A program made the translations under genes and the position numbers. The notes under the pieces were generated by a model that made no database searches, was not told the origin of the DNA, and saw only the letters and a program-made list of their open reading frames with translations. 64,000 nt of DNA, from the NCBI GenBank assembly GCA_965261085.1, contig OZ253442.1, forward strand, positions 640,001 through 704,000, read 5' to 3'. Position 1 is the first letter of the stretch. Each line of letters begins with the position of its first letter. The DNA comes from a bacterium (GTDB taxonomy: Bacteria; UBA8248). This document shows, one piece after another, positions 12,641 through 62,280 of the stretch.

Positions 12641-13489
12641 TTACGCCACCAAGTCTTTATAGCGGAGCCTCTTGCCGTTCATGCCGAGAACCATGGATTG
12701 CATCTGTTCGATGGTATCCATGGGGCGGAGATTATGGCGTCCTGCAAATTCATTCACATATCGTTGCAGGTGCTTCCGGCTCATGTTGTGATAGACGCCA
12801 TGATACCCTCTTTTGAGCATAGACCAAAATGATTCAATCCCGTTTGTGTGAGCCATGCCGTTTACATACTCTTTGGCGGAATGCCGTACGCTTTCGTGCT
12901 TGTATTCGCCGCCGTACTCATCGCCAAGGTGGACGTAACCCCGATTTTCGTCGGTGAAAAGCGTGGCTCCCGGAACGACATTCTCACGAACAAATTTCTT
13001 GAGAGTCTCGCCTTTTCCATCCTCAAGAACATCGGCCTTCACCCGTCCGGTTTCCCTATCCTTTGCGCCGATGATTCCCGTCTTATTCACGGGGCCGCGC
13101 CCTTCCTTCGTCCGCTTTGACGTGGGCTTGTTTTTCTCAAGGCCACCAATATAGCTTTCGTCAACTTCCGTAGGGCCGGAAAACAATCCGCCGTTTTCCT
13201 GCCACGTCTCCCGGATACGATGCGCCAAGTGCCACGCGCTCTTTTGTGTGATGCCGAGATCGCGGTGCAACTTCATGGATGATACGCCCTTGAGGTTCGT
13301 GGTGGAAAGGTAAATCGCAATCGCCCACTTTTGAAATCCGAGATTAGACCCTTGCATGAGTGTTCCGGTCTTTACCGAAAAATCCTTGCGGCAATCTGAA
13401 CACCAATACGGGAGGGGCTTTTCATTCGGAACAGGAGATACTTTGATGCTTCCGCAATGAGGGTAGTATCGCTCCTGATTAGGCCAGCG
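12641..13489 (-). pseudogene. IS1595-family DDE transposase lacking its N-terminus
   Basis: frame extends upstream of ATG 13357 as RWPNQERYYPHCGS...YWCSDCRKDFSVKTGTLM (Zn ribbon); EVDESYIGG, TDE, HTNGIESFW, YVNEFAGRHN. Confidence 0.9.
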
Positions 13490-14173: not shown

Positions 14174-14333
14174 GACGTGAACTCCCCTCCATGAGGTGAT
14201 GATCGGTATACGCGGTGTCGGGCGTATTCTAACGGCATGGACTCGCAATCTGTCCAACGCCCATGTATATTTGTTCGACATAATCAATGGCGAGCATATC
14301 CTGCGCTACATAGAGTTTTTCCGGAGGTATTTC

Positions 14334-15368
14334 GTGAGCGCTCCTCCCGTGGATGAGTTCGAATATTTCTTTGAAAAACCCTGGTCGGACGGCCTGCCGG
14401 TCATCCCCCCGACGGAAGAGCGCCTGGGACTCATGCTGGCGGGTACGAGCCGCGCTCCGGACGAAGTCATCGGGGACGTGCCCCCGCTGCTGGCCCAGGC
14501 GGACGTTCGGACGATCGCCGTTCATGCCGTCATGGCCGGATGCAAACCGGAGTATATGCCCGTTCTCATCGGGGCGGTCGAAGCCATTCTGGAAGAAAAA
14601 TTCAATGCGGGAGGCGTGCAGGCGACGCTCTCATGCGCGGCCCCGCTTTTGATCGTGAACGGCCCTTACGCCAGGAAAATCGGCATACACGGCGGGCTCG
14701 GCTGTTTCGGTCCGGGAAATCGCGCAAACGCGACGATTGGCCGCGCCATCAGGCTTTTGCTCCTCAACGTAGGCGGCGGAATACCGGGTATCACCTCGAT
14801 GAGCACGTTTTCACAACCGGGGAGGTTCACGTTCTGCATCGCCGAGAACGAAGAGGAAAGCCCCTGGGAGTCTCTTGCGCTGACGAAGGGTTTTGGCGCG
14901 GACGCGGACGTCGTCACCGTCGTGCATGTGGAAGGCCCCGTCATGGTCTGGGATGACGTGAGTAACGACCCCGAACGAATGTTCCCCTCCATTGCGGACA
15001 CCATGTCGCATTTGGGCGCCTGGAATTGTTGGGCCAGCACCGATTTGGTAGTGGCCATGAGCCCGCAGCAGGCTGCGATTTGCGCGAAGAGGGGGTATTC
15101 CAAGGCGGATGTCCATGGACGCCTTTGTGAAATCGCGGGCCGCACGGTGGGCGAGCTCAAAACGGGAGGGCATTTCAGGGAAAATCGGATCAAGGATTTT
15201 CCGATCCCTGTAGATTTGGAAGATGACGATGCGTTTGTTCCGGCGATAAAAGAGGCCCAGAGACTGCTCTTGATCGTGGCGGGCGGAATTCCGGGGCCGA
15301 TGACGGCCGTGATGCACGGCTGGAACGGCAGTAGCCACTCTGTATCCCGTTCATTTGAATCCTGGTGA
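14334..15368 (+). CDS. uncharacterised WSDGLPV-PT family protein (UGSC-associated), paralogue 1
   Basis: GGAGG before GTG 14334; WSDGLPVIPPT, AVMAGCKP, NGPY, GCFGPGNRANATIGRA, ENEEESPWE. Confidence 0.85.
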   Translation: MSAPPVDEFEYFFEKPWSDGLPVIPPTEERLGLMLAGTSRAPDEVIGDVPPLLAQADVRTIAVHAVMAGCKPEYMPVLIGAVEAILEEKFNAGGVQATLSCAAPLLIVNGPYARKIGIHGGLGCFGPGNRANATIGRAIRLLLLNVGGGIPGITSMSTFSQPGRFTFCIAENEEESPWESLALTKGFGADADVVTVVHVEGPVMVWDDVSNDPERMFPSIADTMSHLGAWNCWASTDLVVAMSPQQAAICAKRGYSKADVHGRLCEIAGRTVGELKTGGHFRENRIKDFPIPVDLEDDDAFVPAIKEAQRLLLIVAGGIPGPMTAVMHGWNGSSHSVSRSFESW

Positions 15369-15393: not shown

Positions 15394-16428
15394 ATGGTTT
15401 TGAACGATCCTCAAGATGAATTCGAGTTTTTCCTGGAAAAACCCTGGTCGGACGGCTTGCCAGTCGTCACGCCAACGGAAGAGCGCATAGAGCGCATGCT
15501 TTCGGGCACGAAAAGAAGTCCAGGCGAGTTCATAGGTCACGTTCCTCCCGCCATGGGCGAGGCTACGGTCCATAGCGTGGCGGTTCATGCGGTAATGGCC
15601 GGCTGTAAGCCCGAGTATCTGCCGGTCGTTCTCGGCGCTACCTCCCTCATGCTTCGCGATGAGTTCAACATGAACGGCGTGCAGGGTACCATGCATGGTG
15701 TGGCGCCACTGATGATCGTGAATGGCCCTTATTCCGAGCAAATCGGCATTCACGGAGGAAATGGCTGCTTTGGCCCCGGCTTTAGGTCCAACGCTTCCAT
15801 TGGACGAGCCATTCGCCTGATTCTCATGAATCTGGGCGGGGGCATCCCGGGCGTTTCTTCTATGACGATTTTCGGCACGCCGCTTCGCTACACCGCGTGC
15901 ATCACGGAAAACCTTCAGTTTCACCCCTGGGAGACGCTCGCTGAATCCAGAGGATATCGGGCGGATGAAAATGTTATTACCATGGCTATGGTGGAAAGCC
16001 CGCGCCTGACTTTCGATGACGTCAGTGAGGAGCCCGAGCGCCTGCTCCGGGGAATCGCCGATGCGATGACGGGCTTGGGTTCCTGGAACATGCATGCGCC
16101 CAGGACCGACATGGTCGTCGCCATGAACCCCCAGCATGCGAAAATTTGCTTTGACGGCGGTTTTACGCACTCGGACGTGCATCAGCGGCTGTGTGAATTG
16201 GCCGGCCATAAGGTAAAAGATCTGAAACGCGGCGGCAACTGGCGACGCGCGCGCGCGCTGGATATGTATATCCATGTGGATCCCGATGATGATGATTTTT
16301 TTGTCCCCGTCATCAAAGACCCCCGCGATCTCCATTTTATCGTCGCGGGCGGCTGGGGTTCCGGCAGCGCGGTCTGCCATGGGTGGAGTGGTGGCAGCCG
16401 CGCCGTTCATGGGGCCTATGAAGTGTAG
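15394..16428 (+). CDS. WSDGLPV-PT family protein, paralogue 2
   Basis: same motif set; GGAGG RBS. Confidence 0.88.
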   Translation: MVLNDPQDEFEFFLEKPWSDGLPVVTPTEERIERMLSGTKRSPGEFIGHVPPAMGEATVHSVAVHAVMAGCKPEYLPVVLGATSLMLRDEFNMNGVQGTMHGVAPLMIVNGPYSEQIGIHGGNGCFGPGFRSNASIGRAIRLILMNLGGGIPGVSSMTIFGTPLRYTACITENLQFHPWETLAESRGYRADENVITMAMVESPRLTFDDVSEEPERLLRGIADAMTGLGSWNMHAPRTDMVVAMNPQHAKICFDGGFTHSDVHQRLCELAGHKVKDLKRGGNWRRARALDMYIHVDPDDDDFFVPVIKDPRDLHFIVAGGWGSGSAVCHGWSGGSRAVHGAYEV

Positions 16429-17521: not shown

Positions 17522-18541
17522 ATGGATGAATTCGAGTTTTTCCTGGGAAAAGAATGGTCAGATGGCTTGCCTGTCGTGACGCCGACGGAAGAGAGAATCG
17601 GTTTGATGCTCTCTGGAACCAGAAGGGAGTCGGGCGAAGTAATCGGCCATGTAGCTCCGGCTGGGGGCGAGCTCAGCATACAAACCATGGCAACGCATGC
17701 CGTGATGGCGGGATGTAAGCCTGAATACATGCCAGTGTTGATAGCAGGACTGGAAGCGCTTCTTGATGAGCGGTTTAACGTAAATCTGATTCAGGCCACA
17801 ACGAGCGCGGGCGCACCATTTTTGTTGGTCAATGGCCCCTACGCCAAGGAAATCGGACTACACGGGGGAGTGGGCTGCATGGGCCCCGGCTTTCGCGCAA
17901 ATCTGACTATTGGCCGCGCCGTGAGGCTCATCATGATGAATGTGGGAGGAGGAATTCCCGGAGTCACCTGCCTCGGTGGATTTGGAGGTCCTTGGCGAAA
18001 CACTTTTTGCATCATGGAGAACGAGGAGGAATCGCCTTGGGAGTCGTATGCAGAGTCCAAAGGGTTTTCAAAAAACGATAATGTGGTGACAATGATTCCC
18101 CTCGAAGGGCCCGTTCAGGTATGGGACGATGCGAGCCTGACTCCCGATAGGCTTCTTACGACGATTGCCGATATGATGTCCGCATTGGGTGGGCCCAACA
18201 TGTATCGGCAAGCGGACATGTCGGTTGTCCTGGGCGCGCAACATGCGCATCTTTGCGCTGACGCCGGGCTGACCCGTAGCGATGTCCATCAAAAGTTACT
18301 AGAAATGGGAGGGAGAACTATTGGGGATATAAAGCGCGGCGGCATCTGGCGAGGTGAGAAAGGCGCAGATCGCTGGCCGTTTCCCGTGGATGTGAATGAT
18401 GATGATTTTTTTGTGCCTGCGGTAGGTGATCCCGACGATCTTCATTTGATCGTCGCAGGAAGCAGAGGTTCACCCTCGAGCATGGTCATGCACGGAATTA
18501 CCGTGGCGTGCCGAGCCGTGATAAAAAAATTTAGTGTGTGA
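17522..18541 (+). CDS. WSDGLPV-PT family protein, paralogue 4
   Basis: same motif set. Confidence 0.88.
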   Translation: MDEFEFFLGKEWSDGLPVVTPTEERIGLMLSGTRRESGEVIGHVAPAGGELSIQTMATHAVMAGCKPEYMPVLIAGLEALLDERFNVNLIQATTSAGAPFLLVNGPYAKEIGLHGGVGCMGPGFRANLTIGRAVRLIMMNVGGGIPGVTCLGGFGGPWRNTFCIMENEEESPWESYAESKGFSKNDNVVTMIPLEGPVQVWDDASLTPDRLLTTIADMMSALGGPNMYRQADMSVVLGAQHAHLCADAGLTRSDVHQKLLEMGGRTIGDIKRGGIWRGEKGADRWPFPVDVNDDDFFVPAVGDPDDLHLIVAGSRGSPSSMVMHGITVACRAVIKKFSV

Positions 18542-18677: not shown

Positions 18678-20939
18678 TTAATGGCCGTTGCTTTTACCGT
18701 TTTTCTTCATGACCGCCCAGCAGACTCGCTCAGGCGTGATGGGAAGGTCGTAAACTTCCGTGCCTATCGCATCGTTGATGGCGAGGGCGACGGCGGCTGG
18801 CGCATTATTACATGGTGGTTCTCCGACGCCCCGCGCACCATATGGACCCGCGCCTTCTCCACATTCGAGAACGACAGACTCAAACTCGCCAATATCCGAG
18901 GAGGTGGGAATCAGGTACTCGTGAAAACTCTGTGATCGGCAATCTCCTTCCACCATGGTGATTTCCTCGTGCAGAGCGTAGCCAATCCCCATCACCGCGC
19001 CCCCTTCAAATTGCCCCTCCACGCTTTGAGGGTTTAGCGCTCGCCCGACATCATGGGTGGCGACATGCTTCAAGAGATTCACTTCGCCAGTTTCGACATC
19101 AACTTCCACTTCGCTTGCATGAACGCCAAAGGTGTAGTCCGCCCATCCGCCCATGCCGTTCATGTATCGTTCCGGATTCTCATATTCGTGCCCCGGCATG
19201 TTGTAGCCATGCGTGCAATGGAGTGACTCGCCCATTTGCTTGGCTTCGCCCGCCGCGGCTCCGATGGTCACTCTCCTCTCGGGAGAGGAGGCCACCCACG
19301 CTTCGCCGCCAGCGATGCGAATGTCTTCCTCCGCAGCCTCAAGCAACGATGCGGCACCTTTTGTGACAGCTTTTCGAACCTCGTCTGCTGCAAGCCGAAC
19401 GGCGTGCCCCGCCATAAGCGTTTGGCGGGAGCCTGCAGTGATGCCCGAAAGCGGCGTAGTGGCGGAATCGGACAAGCGGGTGGAAACTTGGTTGAGCCTG
19501 AGCCCCAGGGTTTCAGCCGTGATGCTTTGAAGCGTAGCGCCCTGCCCTGCCCCAATATCTGGTGCGCTCACACGGACCACGGCACTGCCGTCCGGCTCGA
19601 GGTGAACGGCTGCATTCGCATCGTCACTCGGCCTTCCGTAGCCGGTAATATTCGCAGCCGCCGCCCGGCCAATGCGCTTGCCAGGGCCTGGTTTAGCGGG
19701 TTCGCCCAGGGCCTTAAGCGCGCTATCGAGGCATCCTTCCAGGTTTGGTTCATAAGGAATTTTCTGCCCAGTCGGCAGTTCTTGTCCTTTCTGAATGAAA
19801 TTTTTTCGCCTGAATTCGTATTTGTCCATGCCGATGGCGTCTGCGACCAGGTTCATTTGATTTTCATAAGCGAAGCAAACCTGGTTCGACCCAACACCGC
19901 GCATTGCGTTGGTGATGGGGTTATTGGTGAGGTAGCCGTGCGCGCGAATTTTCACGTGGGAAACGTCATATGGGCCTGCGGCGATGCACATCGCGCCCAA
20001 GAGGAACAAATTGGATTTATATGGATAGGCGCCTGCGTCGCCTACGATATCCGCTTGCACGGCCAGGATTTTCCCGTCCTTGGTGGCTCCCGTTTTGTAC
20101 TTCATATAAAAAGGATGCTTTTTCGAGGTGTTTCTAATGCCATGCTCGCGCCCCAGCACCATCACGGCCGACCTTCGAGTATGCCAGGTGAGTAGAGCAA
20201 GGTAGGGTTCTACGGTCAGCATGCCCTTGGCGCCGAATCCCCCGCCGACATAAGTGCCAAGGTGACGAACGCGGCTCTGAGAAATCCCCAAAATCGCCGC
20301 TATGGCGCGATAATATTCGATAAGCTGCGTGCCGACGCGAATGGTAATAACGCCGTCTTCTTCCATCCAGGAAGTGCCGGATGCGGGTTCCAGGAATGCG
20401 TGTTCGGCAAGTTGCGTGGTGTATGTTTTCTCAATCACCACATCGGCTTCGTCAAACGCGGTTTTTATGTCTCCACGGATAACCTCGAAATCACACGCCT
20501 GTCGTTTCTCGGCGCTCGTTTCATCATGACGCGTTGTCCACACCCCTTCTTCTGCTTCGATTTCCACCTCGATGGCCGAGATGGCGGCATCAAGCGCTTC
20601 CCTGGTCTCAGCGCCTACGATTGCAAGGGCGTCTCCCGTAAATTCGATTTTATCTTCCACCAGCACTGGCTGATGTGGCAGGCCCGGCGTGCCGGAGCCG
20701 TATCGAACGTTCGTGCCGGGAATGTCCTTTGCGGTCAGAATGGCGGCTACGCCTGGAATTTTTTCAGCTATTGAAGTGTCGAGTTTTTTCAAACGGCCTA
20801 CGGGGACGGGCGTAAATAATACGCCGCACTGCAAAGCGCCTGCGGGGATCGCGTCTTCTCCGTAGGGCATGGAACCATCCGCTTTCGGAATAGAATCATA
20901 TCGGACGTTCGATTTGCCGATGATATCGTAATCGGGCAT
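18678..20939 (-). CDS. xanthine dehydrogenase/aldehyde oxidoreductase family molybdopterin-binding subunit
   Basis: AAGGAG before ATG 20939; EHAFLEP, VGGGFGAK, AMRGVG, AGSRQT, GQFEGG, ARGVGEPP. Confidence 0.92.
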   Translation of the reverse strand: MPDYDIIGKSNVRYDSIPKADGSMPYGEDAIPAGALQCGVLFTPVPVGRLKKLDTSIAEKIPGVAAILTAKDIPGTNVRYGSGTPGLPHQPVLVEDKIEFTGDALAIVGAETREALDAAISAIEVEIEAEEGVWTTRHDETSAEKRQACDFEVIRGDIKTAFDEADVVIEKTYTTQLAEHAFLEPASGTSWMEEDGVITIRVGTQLIEYYRAIAAILGISQSRVRHLGTYVGGGFGAKGMLTVEPYLALLTWHTRRSAVMVLGREHGIRNTSKKHPFYMKYKTGATKDGKILAVQADIVGDAGAYPYKSNLFLLGAMCIAAGPYDVSHVKIRAHGYLTNNPITNAMRGVGSNQVCFAYENQMNLVADAIGMDKYEFRRKNFIQKGQELPTGQKIPYEPNLEGCLDSALKALGEPAKPGPGKRIGRAAAANITGYGRPSDDANAAVHLEPDGSAVVRVSAPDIGAGQGATLQSITAETLGLRLNQVSTRLSDSATTPLSGITAGSRQTLMAGHAVRLAADEVRKAVTKGAASLLEAAEEDIRIAGGEAWVASSPERRVTIGAAAGEAKQMGESLHCTHGYNMPGHEYENPERYMNGMGGWADYTFGVHASEVEVDVETGEVNLLKHVATHDVGRALNPQSVEGQFEGGAVMGIGYALHEEITMVEGDCRSQSFHEYLIPTSSDIGEFESVVLECGEGAGPYGARGVGEPPCNNAPAAVALAINDAIGTEVYDLPITPERVCWAVMKKNGKSNGH

Positions 20940-21135
20940 TTGTTTACTCCTTAAGGATAGAGAATTCCCATGAATTGGACTTGATTTTGCCAAAATTCGA
21001 CGAATCTGAGAAGCGGGCGAAAAGAATCATTCATGTTTTCGAGAAAAAATCGAATCGATGGATATCGTAGACAAGGAGTGATTTGCGAGATATGATTTAG
21101 ACACGGGTGAATTCACATATTATATGGAGAAAACC

Positions 21136-21666
21136 ATGGCGAACGGAATGGGATTTATCGACCCGACGGCGGGTGGCTCGGCTGCGCGAATCGAGCTTGC
21201 GCAACGGCCCGACGATCTTTCTGGAAAAGTGGTGGGCCTCCTCGATAACACCAAAGAACAAGCAGATATTATTTTAGAAACTCTGGGGAATGCTCTGCGC
21301 GAGCAATACGATGTGGCCAGAGTCGTCTCGCTGCGCAAGGAGCATTACTCGAAACCCGCCACGGATGAAATGATCGAAGAAATGGCCCAGGAGGTGGATG
21401 TGGCGATTGCCGCATTGGGCGGCTGAGGCTCCTGCACGTTGTGCAGTGTGCACGACACCGTTGAATTTGAAAAACGTGGCATTCCTTCAACGACCATCAT
21501 CACCGAGGCATTCAAGAACGCGGCGGACTTTCAATTCCGTGGCAAAGGCATGGAAGGCCACCCGTATGTGCAGTTGCCTCACCCAGTCAGTAATTTACAG
21601 CCCGAAGAAATGCGGGAGACTACGCTCAAGTTTGTCGAAGAAGTGGCCAGCCATCTGAAAAGCTGA
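21136..21666 (+). CDS. UGSC-family selenoprotein; TGA 21424-21426 predicted selenocysteine
   Basis: ORFs 21124-21426 and 21439-21666 share a frame and read ALGG-U-GSCTLCSVHD..EKRGIP...PHP; GGAG before ATG 21136. Confidence 0.88.
21438..21456 (+). promoter_or_regulatory. putative bacterial SECIS hairpin
   Basis: GTTGTGCA-GTG-TGCACGAC, 8-bp stem with G-led loop 19 nt after the TGA. Confidence 0.6.
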
Positions 21667-21705: not shown

Positions 21706-22488
21706 GTGCGCGAATTTGAAACGATATCTTATTCGGAAGAAGATGGATTGGCGTTAGTGAAGCTCAACCGCCCGGAGAGCCTGAATGCGGTCAGCTTCAA
21801 GATGGCGGAAGAATTCGTGGAATTGGCGCGAACCTTGGCCGACGCACAGAAAGTGCGTGTAGTTATCCTCACTGGAGAGGGACGCTCTTTCAGTACGGGT
21901 CGAGACTTGAAAGAAAGCGCTACGCATACGAAGGAGATGGCTGATCAGTACCAGCGTCATGTGATGGTGACGACGACATTATGGGAGCGTTTACCCATGC
22001 CCACCATCGCCGCCATCAATGGTCACGCGTTTGGCTGGGGTGTGGAAATTACATTGGGATGCGACATCAGGCTGGCTGCGGAAGAGGCCACTCTTTGTCT
22101 GCCGGAATGCAGCTTGGGTATTTTCCCTGGGGCTGGCGGGGTGGTCAGGCTCCAAAGAATCATGCCGGCTGGCCAGGCGAAAGAGCTGGTTTTCACGAGC
22201 AAGCGAATCGATGGAATAGAAGCCGAGCGCATCGGTTTGGTGAACAAGGCACATCCGCGTGACAGTCTCATGAACGAAGCGACGGCCATGGCGGAAACGA
22301 TAAGAGACAATGGCCCTCTGGGAGTTCGCGGGGCAAAGAAAGTAATCGACCAAACACTCGATATGCCGCTCGCTCAGGCTGTAGAGTTTTCCAACGCCCT
22401 CAGGTTGCCGTTGAATCACACCAAAGATTTCGCCGAAGCGCTGGCGGCGTTCAAAGAGAAGAGGAAACCCAATTTTACAGGAGAATAA
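21706..22488 (+). CDS. enoyl-CoA hydratase/isomerase (crotonase) family
   Basis: LNRPESLNA, FSTGRDL, AAINGHAFGWGVE, PECSLGIFPGAGG. Confidence 0.92.
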   Translation: MREFETISYSEEDGLALVKLNRPESLNAVSFKMAEEFVELARTLADAQKVRVVILTGEGRSFSTGRDLKESATHTKEMADQYQRHVMVTTTLWERLPMPTIAAINGHAFGWGVEITLGCDIRLAAEEATLCLPECSLGIFPGAGGVVRLQRIMPAGQAKELVFTSKRIDGIEAERIGLVNKAHPRDSLMNEATAMAETIRDNGPLGVRGAKKVIDQTLDMPLAQAVEFSNALRLPLNHTKDFAEALAAFKEKRKPNFTGE

Positions 22489-22517
22489 AAGTCGTCAAAA
22501 TTTTGCATGAACTACCG

Positions 22518-22545
22518 AGCCTGTCCTCCTGAGGATGGGCTTTTT
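22518..22545 (+). terminator. possible intrinsic terminator after first crotonase
   Basis: AGCCTGTCCTC..GAGGATGGGCT hairpin followed by a T-run. Confidence 0.5.
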
Positions 22546-22550
22546 GTTCA

Positions 22551-23264
22551 TTGGGACGGAAAATGAATCAAGACCTGCTTATCACACATATTGAATCCAA
22601 TATCGCAAGCATCACAGTGAATCGCCCGGAAACGCGAAATGCGTTCAACACGCCATTGATGAAGGCCATGTGTATGGTGATGGCTGAAATTAAGGCCAAG
22701 CGGGATGTTAAAGTTCTTATAGTGACGGGCGCAGGAAGTTCTTTTTCTTCAGGCCGCGATCTGAAAGAAAGCACCACCCATACAAAAGAGCAAGCCAAGA
22801 GTTTCATGATGTTGGGTGAGAGATGGAGTACGACTCTCCGTGAATTGCCTGTTCCCACGATAGCCGCGGTGAACGGCCCCGCCTTCGGGTGGGGAATGGT
22901 GTTGATGCTCGCATGTGACATTCGTATTGCGGTGAATGATGCAATTTTGGGATATCCAGAGACCGCGTTGGGAGTATTTCCGGGAGCAGATGCCACCGTT
23001 CGTCTGACCCGACAGATTTTTGTGCCATCTGCAAAAGATTTGGTGCTCACCGGCAGAAGGTTTGATGCGCAAGAGGGATATCGCTTAGGATTGTTGAATC
23101 GGATCACTTCTAAGAGAGAATTGAGGGCGGAAACTGACGCTCTGGCTGGTGAAATTGCCCAAAATCCGCTGGAAAGACTAAAAGCGATGAAATCAACATT
23201 TGTGAAAGTTGAAATGATGCCGCGTTTTGGACATTTATCGGTGGCCGAGAAACTCGAACGATGA
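22551..23264 (+). CDS. enoyl-CoA hydratase/isomerase family, paralogue (start may be ATG 22563)
   Basis: VNRPETRNA, FSSGRDLKES, AAVNGPAFGWG, PETALGVFPG. Confidence 0.88.
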   Translation: MGRKMNQDLLITHIESNIASITVNRPETRNAFNTPLMKAMCMVMAEIKAKRDVKVLIVTGAGSSFSSGRDLKESTTHTKEQAKSFMMLGERWSTTLRELPVPTIAAVNGPAFGWGMVLMLACDIRIAVNDAILGYPETALGVFPGADATVRLTRQIFVPSAKDLVLTGRRFDAQEGYRLGLLNRITSKRELRAETDALAGEIAQNPLERLKAMKSTFVKVEMMPRFGHLSVAEKLER

Positions 23265-23641
23265 AAGTCCGGGAGTGTTTTTTGCAGGCGGTAGCGATTG
23301 TTGGAGCGGAGGAAGACGCCAGAGAGGCATGGACGGCTATGAACAGGATAAATGCACCTTGGGCCGCGATTTTTAATGAGAAACGCTTGGTGGGGATCTT
23401 AAATAAAAGCGACATTGATGCGGTTATTCGTGTGCCCGAGGTTTTTCAAATAGTGGGGGAGATTGCCGAGAAGGGAATGCCTGCGAGGCGAGGAATGTCT
23501 TTGTCTCCAAACATGGATTTGAACGAGGCTGCTCTTCAACTCGAAATGGCGAGAACGGATGCCGCTTTAGTCGAAGGTGTTGGCAGACCACCTGGCGTTA
23601 TTGAAATGGATGCAGCCAATCGCGCATTGTTATTTACTTAA
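23261..23641 (+). CDS. hypothetical protein, degenerate CBS-pair-like
   Basis: ATGA overlap with upstream gene; RLVGILNKSDI and LSPNMDLNEAA resemble CBS motifs. Confidence 0.55.
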   Translation: MKVRECFLQAVAIVGAEEDAREAWTAMNRINAPWAAIFNEKRLVGILNKSDIDAVIRVPEVFQIVGEIAEKGMPARRGMSLSPNMDLNEAALQLEMARTDAALVEGVGRPPGVIEMDAANRALLFT

Positions 23642-23719
23642 TGATGCGCTTTTTGTTTTCCTTGAAGCTAGCCGAATCATTGCCTCGCTTTCGGGGAATG
23701 ATTAGCGGGAGGGGTATAG

Positions 23720-24916
23720 ATGGAATTCACATTAAGTGAAGATCAGTTGCGGATTCAGCAAATAGCCAGAAAATTTTCCTATGAAGAACTGGCCCCGGTG
23801 GCCCCCGAACGCGATCGGATTCAGAATTGGGAAGAGCGGATGCCGTGGGACTTGACGGAAAAAGCAAGCGCTTTGGGCCTCCGGCAACTGCCTTATCCGA
23901 AAGAATATGGCGGCATGGACGCCGATGTGCTTTCGTGTTGCCTGGCGGGGGAAGAGCTTGCCGTGGGTGATCTGGGTTTTGCGGTAAATCTGGATCAGAC
24001 CTGGAAGCTGTCTCATATCCTCGAAATAGTTGAGCCTGAACTCAGAGACCCCTGGATAAAACGCTTGTGTGAAGAACCAAGATTCCTGGTTGCGATTTCC
24101 ATGACGGAAGAAGGAGCGGGAAGCGATCACCAAGGATATTATGACGATCCCTCCATCGCGCTTTATGCGCGTGCGGAGAAAAAAAATGGCAAATGGATCA
24201 TCAATGGGAAAAAGCGCTACATCAGCAACGGCCCTGTGGCATCATTGTACGTTTTAGCGGCGAGAACTGATCTCAGCAAAAACCTAAGAGAAAGTTTAAC
24301 TGGTTTTCTGGTTCCGAGAGACACTCCTGGCGTATCGATCGGCCATGTGCATGAAAAAATTGGTCAACGTCTTTCGATGAATTCGGAAATCTTTTACGAA
24401 AATGTCGAAATTCCAGAGAACCACGTTATCTTAGGTGAAGGAAGCATGTTTGAAATCAGGGGCAATCTCCTGGCGATGGGCAAACCAGAAGCAGCCGCCA
24501 CAGTTCTGGGTGTCGGACGCGCCGCATTCGAAAAAGCCCTTGATTACAGCCGAAAACGTGTTCAGGGAGGCAAGCCCATCGCCCAGCATCAGGCGATAGA
24601 AACCATGCTCGCTGATATGGCGATGAATCTGGATATCGCGCGCACCTACATTTGGCGCACTGCCTGGGCGGTGGATCATCAAAAACCCTATGATTTCACG
24701 CAAGGATGGAAGTGCAAGGTTTTTGCATCGGAGGTTGCCTTTGACTGCGCGCGTCTGGGGATGGAGATATTTGGAGGAGCGGGCATTATGCACGACGCTC
24801 CCATGGAGAAATATCTTCGTGATGCCAGCACATTTTTGCATTCAGACGGCACGAATCAAGTCTTGCGGTTGAGAACGGCCCAGGCCTATGTGAAAGGCTT
24901 AGCCACGGCGTTTTAG
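23720..24916 (+). CDS. acyl-CoA dehydrogenase family protein
   Basis: MTEEGAGSD, INGKKRYISNG, RVQGGKPI, FGGAG...EKYLRDA, DGTNQV. Confidence 0.93.
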   Translation: MEFTLSEDQLRIQQIARKFSYEELAPVAPERDRIQNWEERMPWDLTEKASALGLRQLPYPKEYGGMDADVLSCCLAGEELAVGDLGFAVNLDQTWKLSHILEIVEPELRDPWIKRLCEEPRFLVAISMTEEGAGSDHQGYYDDPSIALYARAEKKNGKWIINGKKRYISNGPVASLYVLAARTDLSKNLRESLTGFLVPRDTPGVSIGHVHEKIGQRLSMNSEIFYENVEIPENHVILGEGSMFEIRGNLLAMGKPEAAATVLGVGRAAFEKALDYSRKRVQGGKPIAQHQAIETMLADMAMNLDIARTYIWRTAWAVDHQKPYDFTQGWKCKVFASEVAFDCARLGMEIFGGAGIMHDAPMEKYLRDASTFLHSDGTNQVLRLRTAQAYVKGLATAF

Positions 24917-24939
24917 CGACACCGAAAGAGGTATTCGAG

Positions 24940-25491
24940 ATGATGGGTCGGTTGGATGGCTGGCGGCAAGGTGAATTATTCCTTCAAGACGGAGAATCGC
25001 TAAAACATCATGTTGCTGACTGGCTGAAGAAAGTGCGCTCGGAATTCTCGGTTTTTATGTCGGATGAGGGCATTGCGGAAATAAGAATGTTGAATGGCGT
25101 GGAGAAGCCTCTCGCGGCTGATCATGCGAGTGAACAATCAACGCCTTTGAGTCGTCGAGCCTCAAAGGAAATAGAAGAGTACCTGAGAGGCACTCGCCAA
25201 AGTTTCAAACTGAAAACAGACCTCTCCATTCTCACGCCTTTTATGGAAAAGGTACTCAGGGAGACAGAAAAAATTCCTTATGGAGAGACACGCTCCTACG
25301 GCTGGGTGGCGAAGCAGATCGGCAACCTGAAAGCTTCACGCGCCGTTGGACAGGCGCTGCATAGAAATCCCGTTCCCCTTGTAATACCCTGACATCGGGT
25401 CATCGCGAGTTCGGGTGAACTCGGTGGATTCGCTAGCAGCGTGTCGCTCAAGGCGGCACTCTTAGTCCATGAGAGGAGTCATAAAAATTAG
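24940..25491 (+). CDS. ogt: methylated-DNA-protein-cysteine S-methyltransferase with TGA (predicted Sec) at the active site
   Basis: IPYGETRSYG..ASRAVGQA..RNPVPLVIP-TGA-HRVIASSGELGGF...KAALL.HE; readthrough ends at TAG 25491. Confidence 0.88.
25406..25423 (+). promoter_or_regulatory. putative bacterial SECIS hairpin
   Basis: CGAGTTC-GGGT-GAACTCG perfect 7-bp stem; loop starts 20 nt after TGA 25390-25392. Confidence 0.65.
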
Positions 25492-25541
25492 GGCACGCGG
25501 ATTTCGCTTGGTGGCATCCAGGAAATATCGGAGGATGAAAA

Positions 25542-26117
25542 ATGTCAAAACAGATGAATGATTTTGTCGATCATGTACGTCAAATTGTAAAAACAGGTGG
25601 CTCCGAAGAAGAAATAACCGCCCGCGTAGCGGCGAGCCTCGATCCGATTCTCAGTGACCCGGACTTGTTGAGTGATGATCAACTCTTGGTGAAACAAGAA
25701 GGATTTACGCTCAACCAGATTCATATCGAGCCGGATGAGAATTTCTCCATAGGTGCCGGCATATGGGATGTAGGACAGACTACTCCGATTCACGATCATG
25801 GTACTTGGGGCGTGATAGGCATTTACCGTGGAATGGAGAACGAAGAGAGTTTTTTGCGTGAAGGTCCCCGGGAAAACGGGGCCCGTGTAAATCTTACACC
25901 CCAAGGCAAACGCTTGGCCGGGCCCGGAGATGTCTTTGTCTGCTGCACAAAGGACAATGACGTGCACCGAGTGAGTTGTGCTTCGTCTGAACCCGTGGTG
26001 GGTGTCCATGTCTATGGTGGTAATCTCGCCAAGATAGCGCGTTTTAAGTACGAAGAATTAACCGGCGAAGTGAAATCGTTTAATACAGGGTGGGATTATG
26101 CGAAAAACTCTGCTTGA
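25542..26117 (+). CDS. cysteine/thiol dioxygenase family protein
   Basis: TPIHDHGTWG, DVHRV, VHVYGG. Confidence 0.82.
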   Translation: MSKQMNDFVDHVRQIVKTGGSEEEITARVAASLDPILSDPDLLSDDQLLVKQEGFTLNQIHIEPDENFSIGAGIWDVGQTTPIHDHGTWGVIGIYRGMENEESFLREGPRENGARVNLTPQGKRLAGPGDVFVCCTKDNDVHRVSCASSEPVVGVHVYGGNLAKIARFKYEELTGEVKSFNTGWDYAKNSA

Positions 26118-61273: not shown

Positions 61274-62280
61274 TTACTCCATCTTTTTCGCGCCGAAGCC
61301 TCCGATCACGTGCTGCTCGGGAGTAGTGGTGGTGGCGGCGCGACTACCGCTCATCACACCCCCGACTTCCTCCGCTGCCGGTCCATAGAAATGACCGCTC
61401 ATTTCGCCGCTGAACCCGCGAACGTTGTTCTCGGGCGCGCTGCTCGTATCGGTGTCCTCACCCATCCAGTACGCAGTGAAGCCATTTCCCGTAATATTGC
61501 CGCCCGAGATGGAAATCGCGTTCGTATCCGCCAACGGTGAATACCCGCTTTCTCCAGGGCGCCTAACCTCAAGCCTCTCGATTCGGCCGGAAACATCGCC
61601 GTTTCCGAAATTCGCCTCTAACGTCAGACTGGTGTCGCCACTACTTTGAAAACGTGTTCTACCGGAACTAGCATCTTGGTCATCTGCGCTCCATATATCG
61701 GCGCGCATGCGTCCTTTATAGGTGGCGCTGCCCATGGTAGGGAGATTCTCCGGGGCGGTCTGCGCGCCATGTACGCTATAGCCCCAATAGCTGCCCATCT
61801 CTATGTCGTCACCCTCATGGTGTATCCAGCCATTAACATCGAGGTACTGGAGAAAGTCTAATTGGTTGTAATTGCTTAATGGCTGAATCAAATTACCATC
61901 TTGCTTGCGAAAGCTAGACAAACCAGCTTGCAAGTCCTCCGGCACGAAATGAACGCTCCATTCCTTGTCATTGACAACATAGGTAATATGAAACCCGCCC
62001 GCGCCGTCGCGGGCAATGGATTTCAAATAAGCCGCGCCCGCTGCCGGCGCTCTCACCCCTGTATCCACGCCGGGTGGTCCCTTTCGACCGCATTCGGCAG
62101 AGGCGAAAACTCCTCGGTGCTCATGCTCACATCGACGACAGGCATCATGGGCGTCTCCATCCTGGCAGAACCGCCGCCGCCACCGCAGCCGGACAATACG
62201 AAGGTGAAGACAAGCACAAATATAAGAGTGAGAAACGAAGGAGACGTTATTCCAAAGGACTGCTTAAAGGGTTTGCTCAT
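61274..62280 (-). pseudogene. surface lipoprotein with transferrin-binding-protein-B-like beta-barrel, frameshifted near 62060
   Basis: lipobox LSGC+GGGGG in 62053-62280; C-part SATYKG...LEANF..GDVSG...GHFYGPAAEEVGG...GGFGAKK. Confidence 0.75.

Follow-up and report, generated by a model that had tools for sequence, protein, structure and literature searches.

The UGSC gene and its reading frame

The window analysed here, a stretch of 64,000 nucleotides of a bacterial contig (OZ253442.1, positions 640,001 to 704,000), contains a reading frame that runs from an ATG at 21136 to a stop TGA at 21664-21666 and holds a single in-frame TGA at 21424-21426. Its features are the following.

21068..21096, forward strand: sigma-70-like promoter match, 10/12 (consensus match only)
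21126..21129, forward strand: Shine-Dalgarno-like GGAG, 6 nt 5' of ATG 21136 (from sequence only)
21136..21666, forward strand: UGSC-family selenoprotein gene (predicted), 176 aa with Sec97; NF041046 150.3 bits (cutoff 125), PF24696 176.2 bits (cutoff 25)
21424..21426, forward strand: in-frame TGA, read as selenocysteine (Sec); codon 97, residue 1 of U-G-S-C-T-L-C
21438..21456, forward strand: bacterial SECIS hairpin (predicted); 8-bp stem, GUG loop at 21446-21448, stem beginning 11 nt past the TGA

Three sigma-70-like sites were observed, against 0.8 expected from shuffles. The codons GGC TGA GGC TCC TGC (21421-21435) join two same-frame ORFs, as the earlier note had seen, and give the protein context G-G-U-G-S-C-T-L-C, in which the U/C-G-S-C motif of the UGSC family is present as U97-G-S-C100. 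The read-through protein exceeds the cutoffs of both family models, while its two halves taken separately reach 53.7 and 77.4 bits against NF041046. Judged by these models, the window gene encodes a complete member of the UGSC (seleno)protein family NF041046/PF24696, a family already known. The earlier note had regarded the protein as hidden, which does not hold for a curated family that has been in print since 2007-2008 (PMC1976440, PMC2398784). Its expectation that gene callers split the selenoprotein agrees with the homologues listed from the protein collection: 99 of the 120 stop exactly at [LV]GG, which indicates that standard gene callers split UGSC genes, and 8 of the 120 carry Cys at the Sec column.

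UGSC was reported as a selenoprotein of unknown function (PMC1976440) and makes up 8.2% of the selenoprotein genes of the Global Ocean Sampling data (PMC9402790). A 2026 review keeps it among the uncharacterised families (PMC13188914); in PMC9312934, PMC5029168 and PMC7539508 it is simply listed, and it is absent from the main text of bioRxiv 10.1101/2022.07.06.499078.

Comparative evidence for selenocysteine

A genome scan for UGSC returned 207 relatives, the best 80 loci of which were taken for comparison. These belong to Nitrospinota/Tectomicrobia, Chloroflexota and Betaproteobacteria, the nearest named relatives of the window protein among them being Nitrospinota (95%). All 81 orthologous genes at these 80 loci have TGA as the Sec codon and read U-G-S-C-T-L-C, with 79-80 codons 3' of the TGA, whereas Cys occupies the Sec97 column in 114/114 full-length table-11 relatives (alignment A5); the alternation of Cys and TGA among homologues, named in the earlier note as a way of checking its reading, is thus found. 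Codons +1 to +3 after the TGA show synonymous variation only, which indicates that they are translated, and since TGA is the ordinary stop of 24 of the 50 annotated window ORFs, an alternative code is excluded.

The orthologues of the best 80 loci form an all-Sec subfamily, in which a third Cys (Cys103) is fixed in 81/81 genes; among the 114 Cys-form relatives of alignment A5, just 20 have this third Cys and 109 have Cys100. On a tree of 55 rows (15 Sec rows, one Cys row in three and two plasmid rows), the all-Sec subfamily is a clade comprising all 15 sampled rows (support 100/100), and three Sec changes are required.

Neither selA, selB, selC, selD nor tRNA-Sec was found within the 64-kb window, and Rfam and ARAGORN scans of the window gave no matches. 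A second recoded gene lies about 4 kb from the UGSC gene.

24940..25491, forward strand: Ogt, O6-alkylguanine methyltransferase; active-site Cys position occupied by TGA (25390-25392)

The score of this protein against PF01035 rises from 62.4 to 106.1 bits upon read-through, and both the TGA and a conserved SECIS-like hairpin are present in 29/29 of the loci having Ogt (among the best 80 of 207). Ogt is a listed selenoprotein family, and its apparent recoding supports Sec decoding in the source genome, although Ogt itself lies outside the UGSC system. Standard gene calling truncates the window Ogt, which adds another selenoprotein from an already known family. Scanning the window by motif for further UxxC/CxxU read-throughs gave seven more candidates and missed Ogt.

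On plasmid records, two TGA-form UGSC genes have been annotated as hypothetical proteins, split or truncated, one from Paracoccus (L089:7396-7965) and one from Acidovorax (L082:8001-8513). The Paracoccus gene lies about 4.4 kb from selB, and also near cysteine desulfurase, TusA and DsrE genes.

A SECIS hairpin under selection

Numbered with the U of UGA as 1, the hairpin occupies nt 15-33, and codons +4 to +10 span the stem-loop. The bacterial SECIS (bSECIS) model specifies a loop of 3-9 nt, a stem of 4-16 bp, a G within the first two loop positions and a UGA-to-loop distance of 16-37 nt (PMC13188914); judged on these rules for loop, stem, G and spacing, the window hairpin agrees with the model, having a 3-nt GUG loop, an 8-bp stem, the loop G and a spacing of 19 nt. 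G23/U24 and a stem starting from nt 15 are common to this hairpin and that of E. coli fdhF.

Synonymous difference across 51 genes of less than 90% identity is 0.03 in codons +4 to +10 versus 0.52 in 43 other conserved codons (p 1.4e-5). All eight stem pairs are kept in 82/82 sequences, and two distant plasmid TGA copies (Acidovorax and Paracoccus) retain the hairpin through a C-G to G-C swap. In a set of 20 distinct sequences, picked partly for variation among them, 160/160 cells are paired and two pairs are altered on both sides; none of 500 shuffles equals the pairing or the covariation score, 58 of 500 show as many as two pairs changed on both sides, and pairing in slid controls is 13-69%. 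Hairpin stability is not higher than that of shuffles (z -1.1 to +0.5 in six windows). On these comparisons of related sequences the hairpin, which the earlier note had described as SECIS-like, is genuine and under clear selection, folding energy alone being uninformative. An alternative hairpin with a hexanucleotide loop (nt 9-23) was rejected, as two of its pairs break, in 6/82 and 3/82 sequences, respectively.

A true stop, be it in a split gene, a pseudogene or a pair of coupled ORFs, or a TGA serving as a Trp or Gly codon throughout, would fit the ordinary folding stability and the missing Sec machinery of the window, and the TGA-GG junction does create a GAGG 10 nt 5' of a TTG at 21439. 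The earlier note's statement that the second ORF has no ribosome-binding site is therefore not literally correct, although this TTG sits within the hairpin and is TTA in 3/82 sequences, and the purely synonymous changes of codons +1 to +3 occur 5' of it. Such a reading is also at odds with the sharing of TGA by all 81 genes across several phyla and its replacement by Cys in distant forms, with the covarying hairpin, with the use of TGA as a normal stop in the window and with the scores of both halves, each below the NF041046 cutoff. We regard it as effectively refuted and its residual probability as very slight; positions 21136-21666 almost certainly encode one 176-aa selenoprotein via SECIS-directed UGA recoding.

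A near-constant, probable partner family

Four tandem paralogues of about 340 aa, overlooked in the earlier note, lie 3-7 kb upstream of the UGSC gene.

14196..15368, forward strand: Unknown_1 copy 1, 57% identical to copy 2; homology starts near 14346
15394..16428, forward strand: Unknown_1 copy 2, 344 aa
16470..17486, forward strand: Unknown_1 copy 3, 53% identical to copy 2
17522..18541, forward strand: Unknown_1 copy 4, 54% identical to copy 2

None of the four, copy 2 included, matches a Pfam or NCBIfam model, and their motif corresponds to that of Unknown_1 in Fig. S1A of PMC2398784, where a UGSC-Unknown_1 fusion is reported. Copy 2 is the one most like the UGSC-adjacent partners of Betaproteobacteria and Chloroflexota (mostly 63-75% identical). 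Among the best 80 loci of 207, Unknown_1 is present in the fetched flank of 77, the three misses being short contigs, and lies within 300 bp of UGSC in 44. It also adjoins UGSC in 20/20 of the plasmid matches listed (21 records, several of them near-duplicates) from haloarchaea, actinobacteria and proteobacteria, and 19 of the 25 UGSC representatives longer than 235 aa are fusions of the two. This recurrent association makes it very likely that UGSC works with Unknown_1 as a two-protein system. The window protein shares with the UGSC family its full-length match, the U-G-S-C motif and the association with Unknown_1, and differs in belonging to the all-Sec subfamily with the third Cys and in having four stand-alone Unknown_1 copies.

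Unknown_1 is itself a large family without a model: scoring 8000 candidates gave at least 5581 relatives. Three cysteines are conserved (C71 in 92/96, C125 in 90/96 and C169 in 90/96 sequences), and they are replaced in 4-6 of 14 fusions. Fusions from Vibrio (L087:7371-9056) and Sporomusa (L088:7320-9044) are without CxxC and stand beside aconitase X and DUF126 genes. The structure model of copy 2 (pLDDT 92.1) has no clear match among solved folds, the best being at Z 5.7 (rmsd 3.2, 92 aligned) and, in a further fold search, at Z 5.0 (rmsd 4.1, 103 aligned). The top Foldseek match is the alpha subunit of a class I fumarate hydratase (7xky_A, E 5e-4, TM 0.29), a weak one by superposition (Z 3.7-4.2, rmsd 5.0-5.5, 154-177 aligned). 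Class I fumarate hydratases are Fe-S enzymes. An Atlas search with Unknown_1 returned unnamed clusters only, plus one with 16% UGSC members at 0.89.

Genomic neighbourhood

Further genes in the window are listed below.

12641-13357, reverse strand: IS1595-family transposase
18678-20993, reverse strand: xanthine-dehydrogenase-family molybdenum subunit, below all NCBIfam cutoffs
21706-26117, forward strand: two enoyl-CoA hydratases, CBS-like protein, acyl-CoA dehydrogenase, Ogt, cysteine-dioxygenase-like cupin
61274-62068, reverse strand: protein with TbpB/FHbp-type beta-barrel matches

The molybdenum subunit gene is divergent from UGSC and separates it from the Unknown_1 copies in this lineage; it occurs in 31 of the best 80 loci of 207, and it is not flanked by a gene for an FAD or Fe-S subunit. 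The genes at 21706-26117 trail UGSC on the same strand solely in this lineage, and the remaining UGSC neighbours vary widely between loci. Tricarboxylate-transporter receptors lie within 7 kb in at least 18 of 58 divergent genome loci, the neighbour-cluster counts over these loci being lower bounds; the top neighbour cluster, which proved to be a shadow ORF on the antisense strand, was left out of account.

The plasmid loci repeatedly contain genes for TRAP transporters, CoA transferases and LysR regulators, and at some of them genes for aconitase X, cysteine desulfurase, TusA and DsrE lie near UGSC. Of the 11 plasmid loci examined (out of 24 records), 5 have a trxB-like gene no more than 8 kb away. 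All five are Cys forms, one case being weak and another in two pieces; Arthrobacter has the gene run trxB-trxA-Unknown_1-UGSC. No trxB-like gene was found at the best 80 genome loci of 207 (0/80), in the window or at either Sec-form plasmid locus. Cultured strains with Cys-form operons carrying trxB belong to Arthrobacter, Roseovarius and Variovorax. Phosphosulfolactate synthase genes lie near UGSC/Unknown_1 in Arthrobacter (L083:2964-8804) and Natrinema (L084:5488-9652), a hint of organosulfonate metabolism.

Structure model of UGSC

The AlphaFold2 model of UGSC (pLDDT 95.8, pTM 0.89) has five strands alternating with helices, and residue 97 lies where strand 89-95 gives way to helix 98-113. 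Its top fold matches are flavodoxin-like or Rossmann-like, among them 7te2_A (Z 10.2, rmsd 2.4, 110 aligned) and 2rjn_A (Z 9.6, rmsd 2.8, 117 aligned). The model strongly suggests that UGSC is a flavodoxin-like alpha/beta sandwich with Sec starting the helix after strand 3. As many as 285 chains match at Z>=8, so the fold is a common one and does not by itself show a function. A thioredoxin fold is the guess found in the literature; neither thioredoxin nor Grd/Prd chains are among the fold-search matches listed for UGSC, and the Pfam thioredoxin model does not match it. Sequence searches of solved structures gave nothing meaningful for UGSC or Unknown_1.

Probable remote homology to the Grd/Prd catalytic domain

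The earlier note had aligned the U-G-S-C-T-L-C site with glycine reductase GrdB and proposed a GrdB/PrdB-like selenol domain. The family models used were TIGR01917 (GrdB), NF040794 (GrdF), NF040795 (GrdH) and TIGR04483 (PrdB), and the comparison set comprised GrdF and GrdG of Peptoclostridium acidaminophilum (located via PMC12674515) and seven further Grd/Prd genes. The window protein matches GrdB at E 8e-4 with 18.4 bits, against a cutoff of 602.2, and is likewise far below the cutoffs of GrdH (15.8 vs 775), of the Grd/Prd subfamily model TIGR01918 (12.4 vs 65.45) and of PrdB (12.3 vs 300). Of 129 UGSC family members, 71 match TIGR01917 at E<=0.1, the lowest E being 2.6e-5; after it, by number of matching members, come GrdF (36), the Grd/Prd subfamily (33), GrdH (27) and PrdB (20).

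Profile comparison gives a stronger signal. In hhalign, the UGSC profile matches the single GrdF sequence at 87.7% (E 3.4e-6), with U97 opposite U350, and a profile of eight Grd/Prd catalytic-domain sequences at 93.5% (E 2.3e-7) over 91 columns, Sec on Sec, so that the alignment of the site with GrdB-type proteins was correctly anticipated. With the U/C columns masked the match is 67% (E 5e-5), at a score of 36 compared with a top score of 27 among 60 column shuffles. Two thioredoxins and three window enzymes, taken as controls, reach at most 5%, the thioredoxins about 1% or less. The match to a PrdB-only profile is 46% over 38 columns, and the HMM score against GrdF alone falls from 14.5 to 1.6 bits with cysteines masked, which 8 of 2000 shuffles reach.

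The confident alignment is limited to UGSC residues about 78-175; the N-terminal half of UGSC aligns with Grd/Prd at low confidence, implying an insert of about 45 residues in Grd/Prd, and the GrdF N-domain gives 0.3%. UGSC and GrdB/GrdF/GrdH (profile match 93.5-95%) agree in the register of U-x-x-C-x-x-C, in the E-x-x-G-I-P and P-H/Y-P segments that come after it and in a final closing helix. They differ in length (176 vs about 436 aa), in that UGSC is without the N-terminal domain and probably also without the 45-residue insert, and in that UGSC has no GrdE/GrdG partner: no GrdE/GrdG/GrdI or grdA/C/D was found among the window ORFs scanned. The UxxCxxC motif put forward in the earlier note is thus present in the homologous segment, but its third Cys is a subfamily trait and not one of the family. 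Like PrdB (PMC11229817), UGSC is a Sec subunit that is small, consists of a single domain with U-x-x-C and depends on a larger partner; in contrast, the partner of UGSC is Unknown_1, which does not resemble GrdG, the PrdA-type subunit taken for comparison (0.04-0.4%), and the pyruvoyl partner chemistry is therefore not shared. A search for longer homologues turned up six UGSC-domain proteins (570-572 aa) and none of the Grd type, and a plasmid tblastn with the motif region did not reach Grd/Prd. No statement linking UGSC with GrdB/PrdB was found in the literature passages covered, though such a link may have been noted elsewhere.

Altogether, these profile results make it highly probable that UGSC is a compact remote homologue of the Sec-bearing catalytic domain of GrdB/GrdF/GrdH/PrdB. 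By the model cutoffs UGSC is not a GrdB/PrdB member, and the kinship proposed in the earlier note stands as remote homology only.

Proposed function and alternatives

The reading that we favour, at a probability of roughly 0.5, is that UGSC serves as selenol subunit in a reductase that is made up of two proteins, is fed by thioredoxin and acts on a small organic acid. According to the mechanistic model of PrdB (PMC11229817), the partner subunit holds the substrate, whose alpha-carbon the Sec attacks, and a GrdB-like pair has been proposed to break a C-F bond (PMC10838667). By analogy, Unknown_1 would bind or activate a small organic acid taken up by the cell, which the Sec97 selenolate would attack so as to break a carbon-heteroatom bond, and Cys100 would resolve the adduct to a selenenyl-sulfide, helped in this subfamily by Cys103; thioredoxin and thioredoxin reductase would then re-reduce the selenenyl-sulfide. 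The four Unknown_1 copies might give the single Sec subunit several substrate specificities. The tricarboxylate-transporter receptors speak for the substrate class and the trxB-like genes of plasmid loci for the electron supply, while the lack of a trxB-like gene at the best 80 genome loci, in the window and at the Sec-form plasmid loci speaks against the latter. We place such a substrate-reducing mechanism of UGSC and Unknown_1 at slightly under an even chance.

The thiol-redox role assumed for UGSC in PMC2398784 would instead make it a general thiol-disulfide or peroxide reductase, or a dedicated reductant of the Unknown_1 cysteines, with Unknown_1 as the real enzyme. The U/CxxC at the start of a helix, the retention of Cys100 in nearly all Cys forms and the three conserved cysteines of Unknown_1 would fit this role, yet Grd/Prd is the sole remote family signal, thioredoxin sequences score about 1%, and trxA, where present, is encoded besides UGSC; we consider it rather unlikely. 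Still less probable is a lyase or hydratase formed by UGSC and Unknown_1 in which U-x-x-C-x-x-C would be the ligand of a metal or Fe-S cluster, or else a carrier of sulfur or selenium. The fumarate hydratase match of Unknown_1 and the aconitase X, cysteine desulfurase, TusA and DsrE neighbours at some plasmid loci are what point this way, but that match is weak, the third Cys is rare among Cys forms, and the Unknown_1 cysteines are replaced in several fusions.

Returning to the selenol-subunit reading, it is tentatively possible, though we hold it to be less likely than the reading itself, that UGSC and Unknown_1 constitute a third, unrecognised branch of the Grd/Prd selenium reductases, driven by thioredoxin and acting on small organic acids. 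If true, this would mean that the Sec catalytic domain was kept while the pyruvoyl partner was swapped for a protein without a close solved fold, and that the system occurs widely outside clostridia, in marine Nitrospinota and Chloroflexota, in Betaproteobacteria, actinobacteria and haloarchaea; the four partner copies of the window would be interchangeable specificity modules for one Sec subunit. The placement next to Grd/Prd, together with the near-constant partner, turns the 'function unknown' of UGSC into a testable scheme, and the trxB-bearing Cys-form operons of cultured strains are open to genetics. The window gene is an ordinary addition to a known family, and the useful part would lie in the reassignment of an abundant orphan family to the Grd/Prd lineage, with a defined partner.
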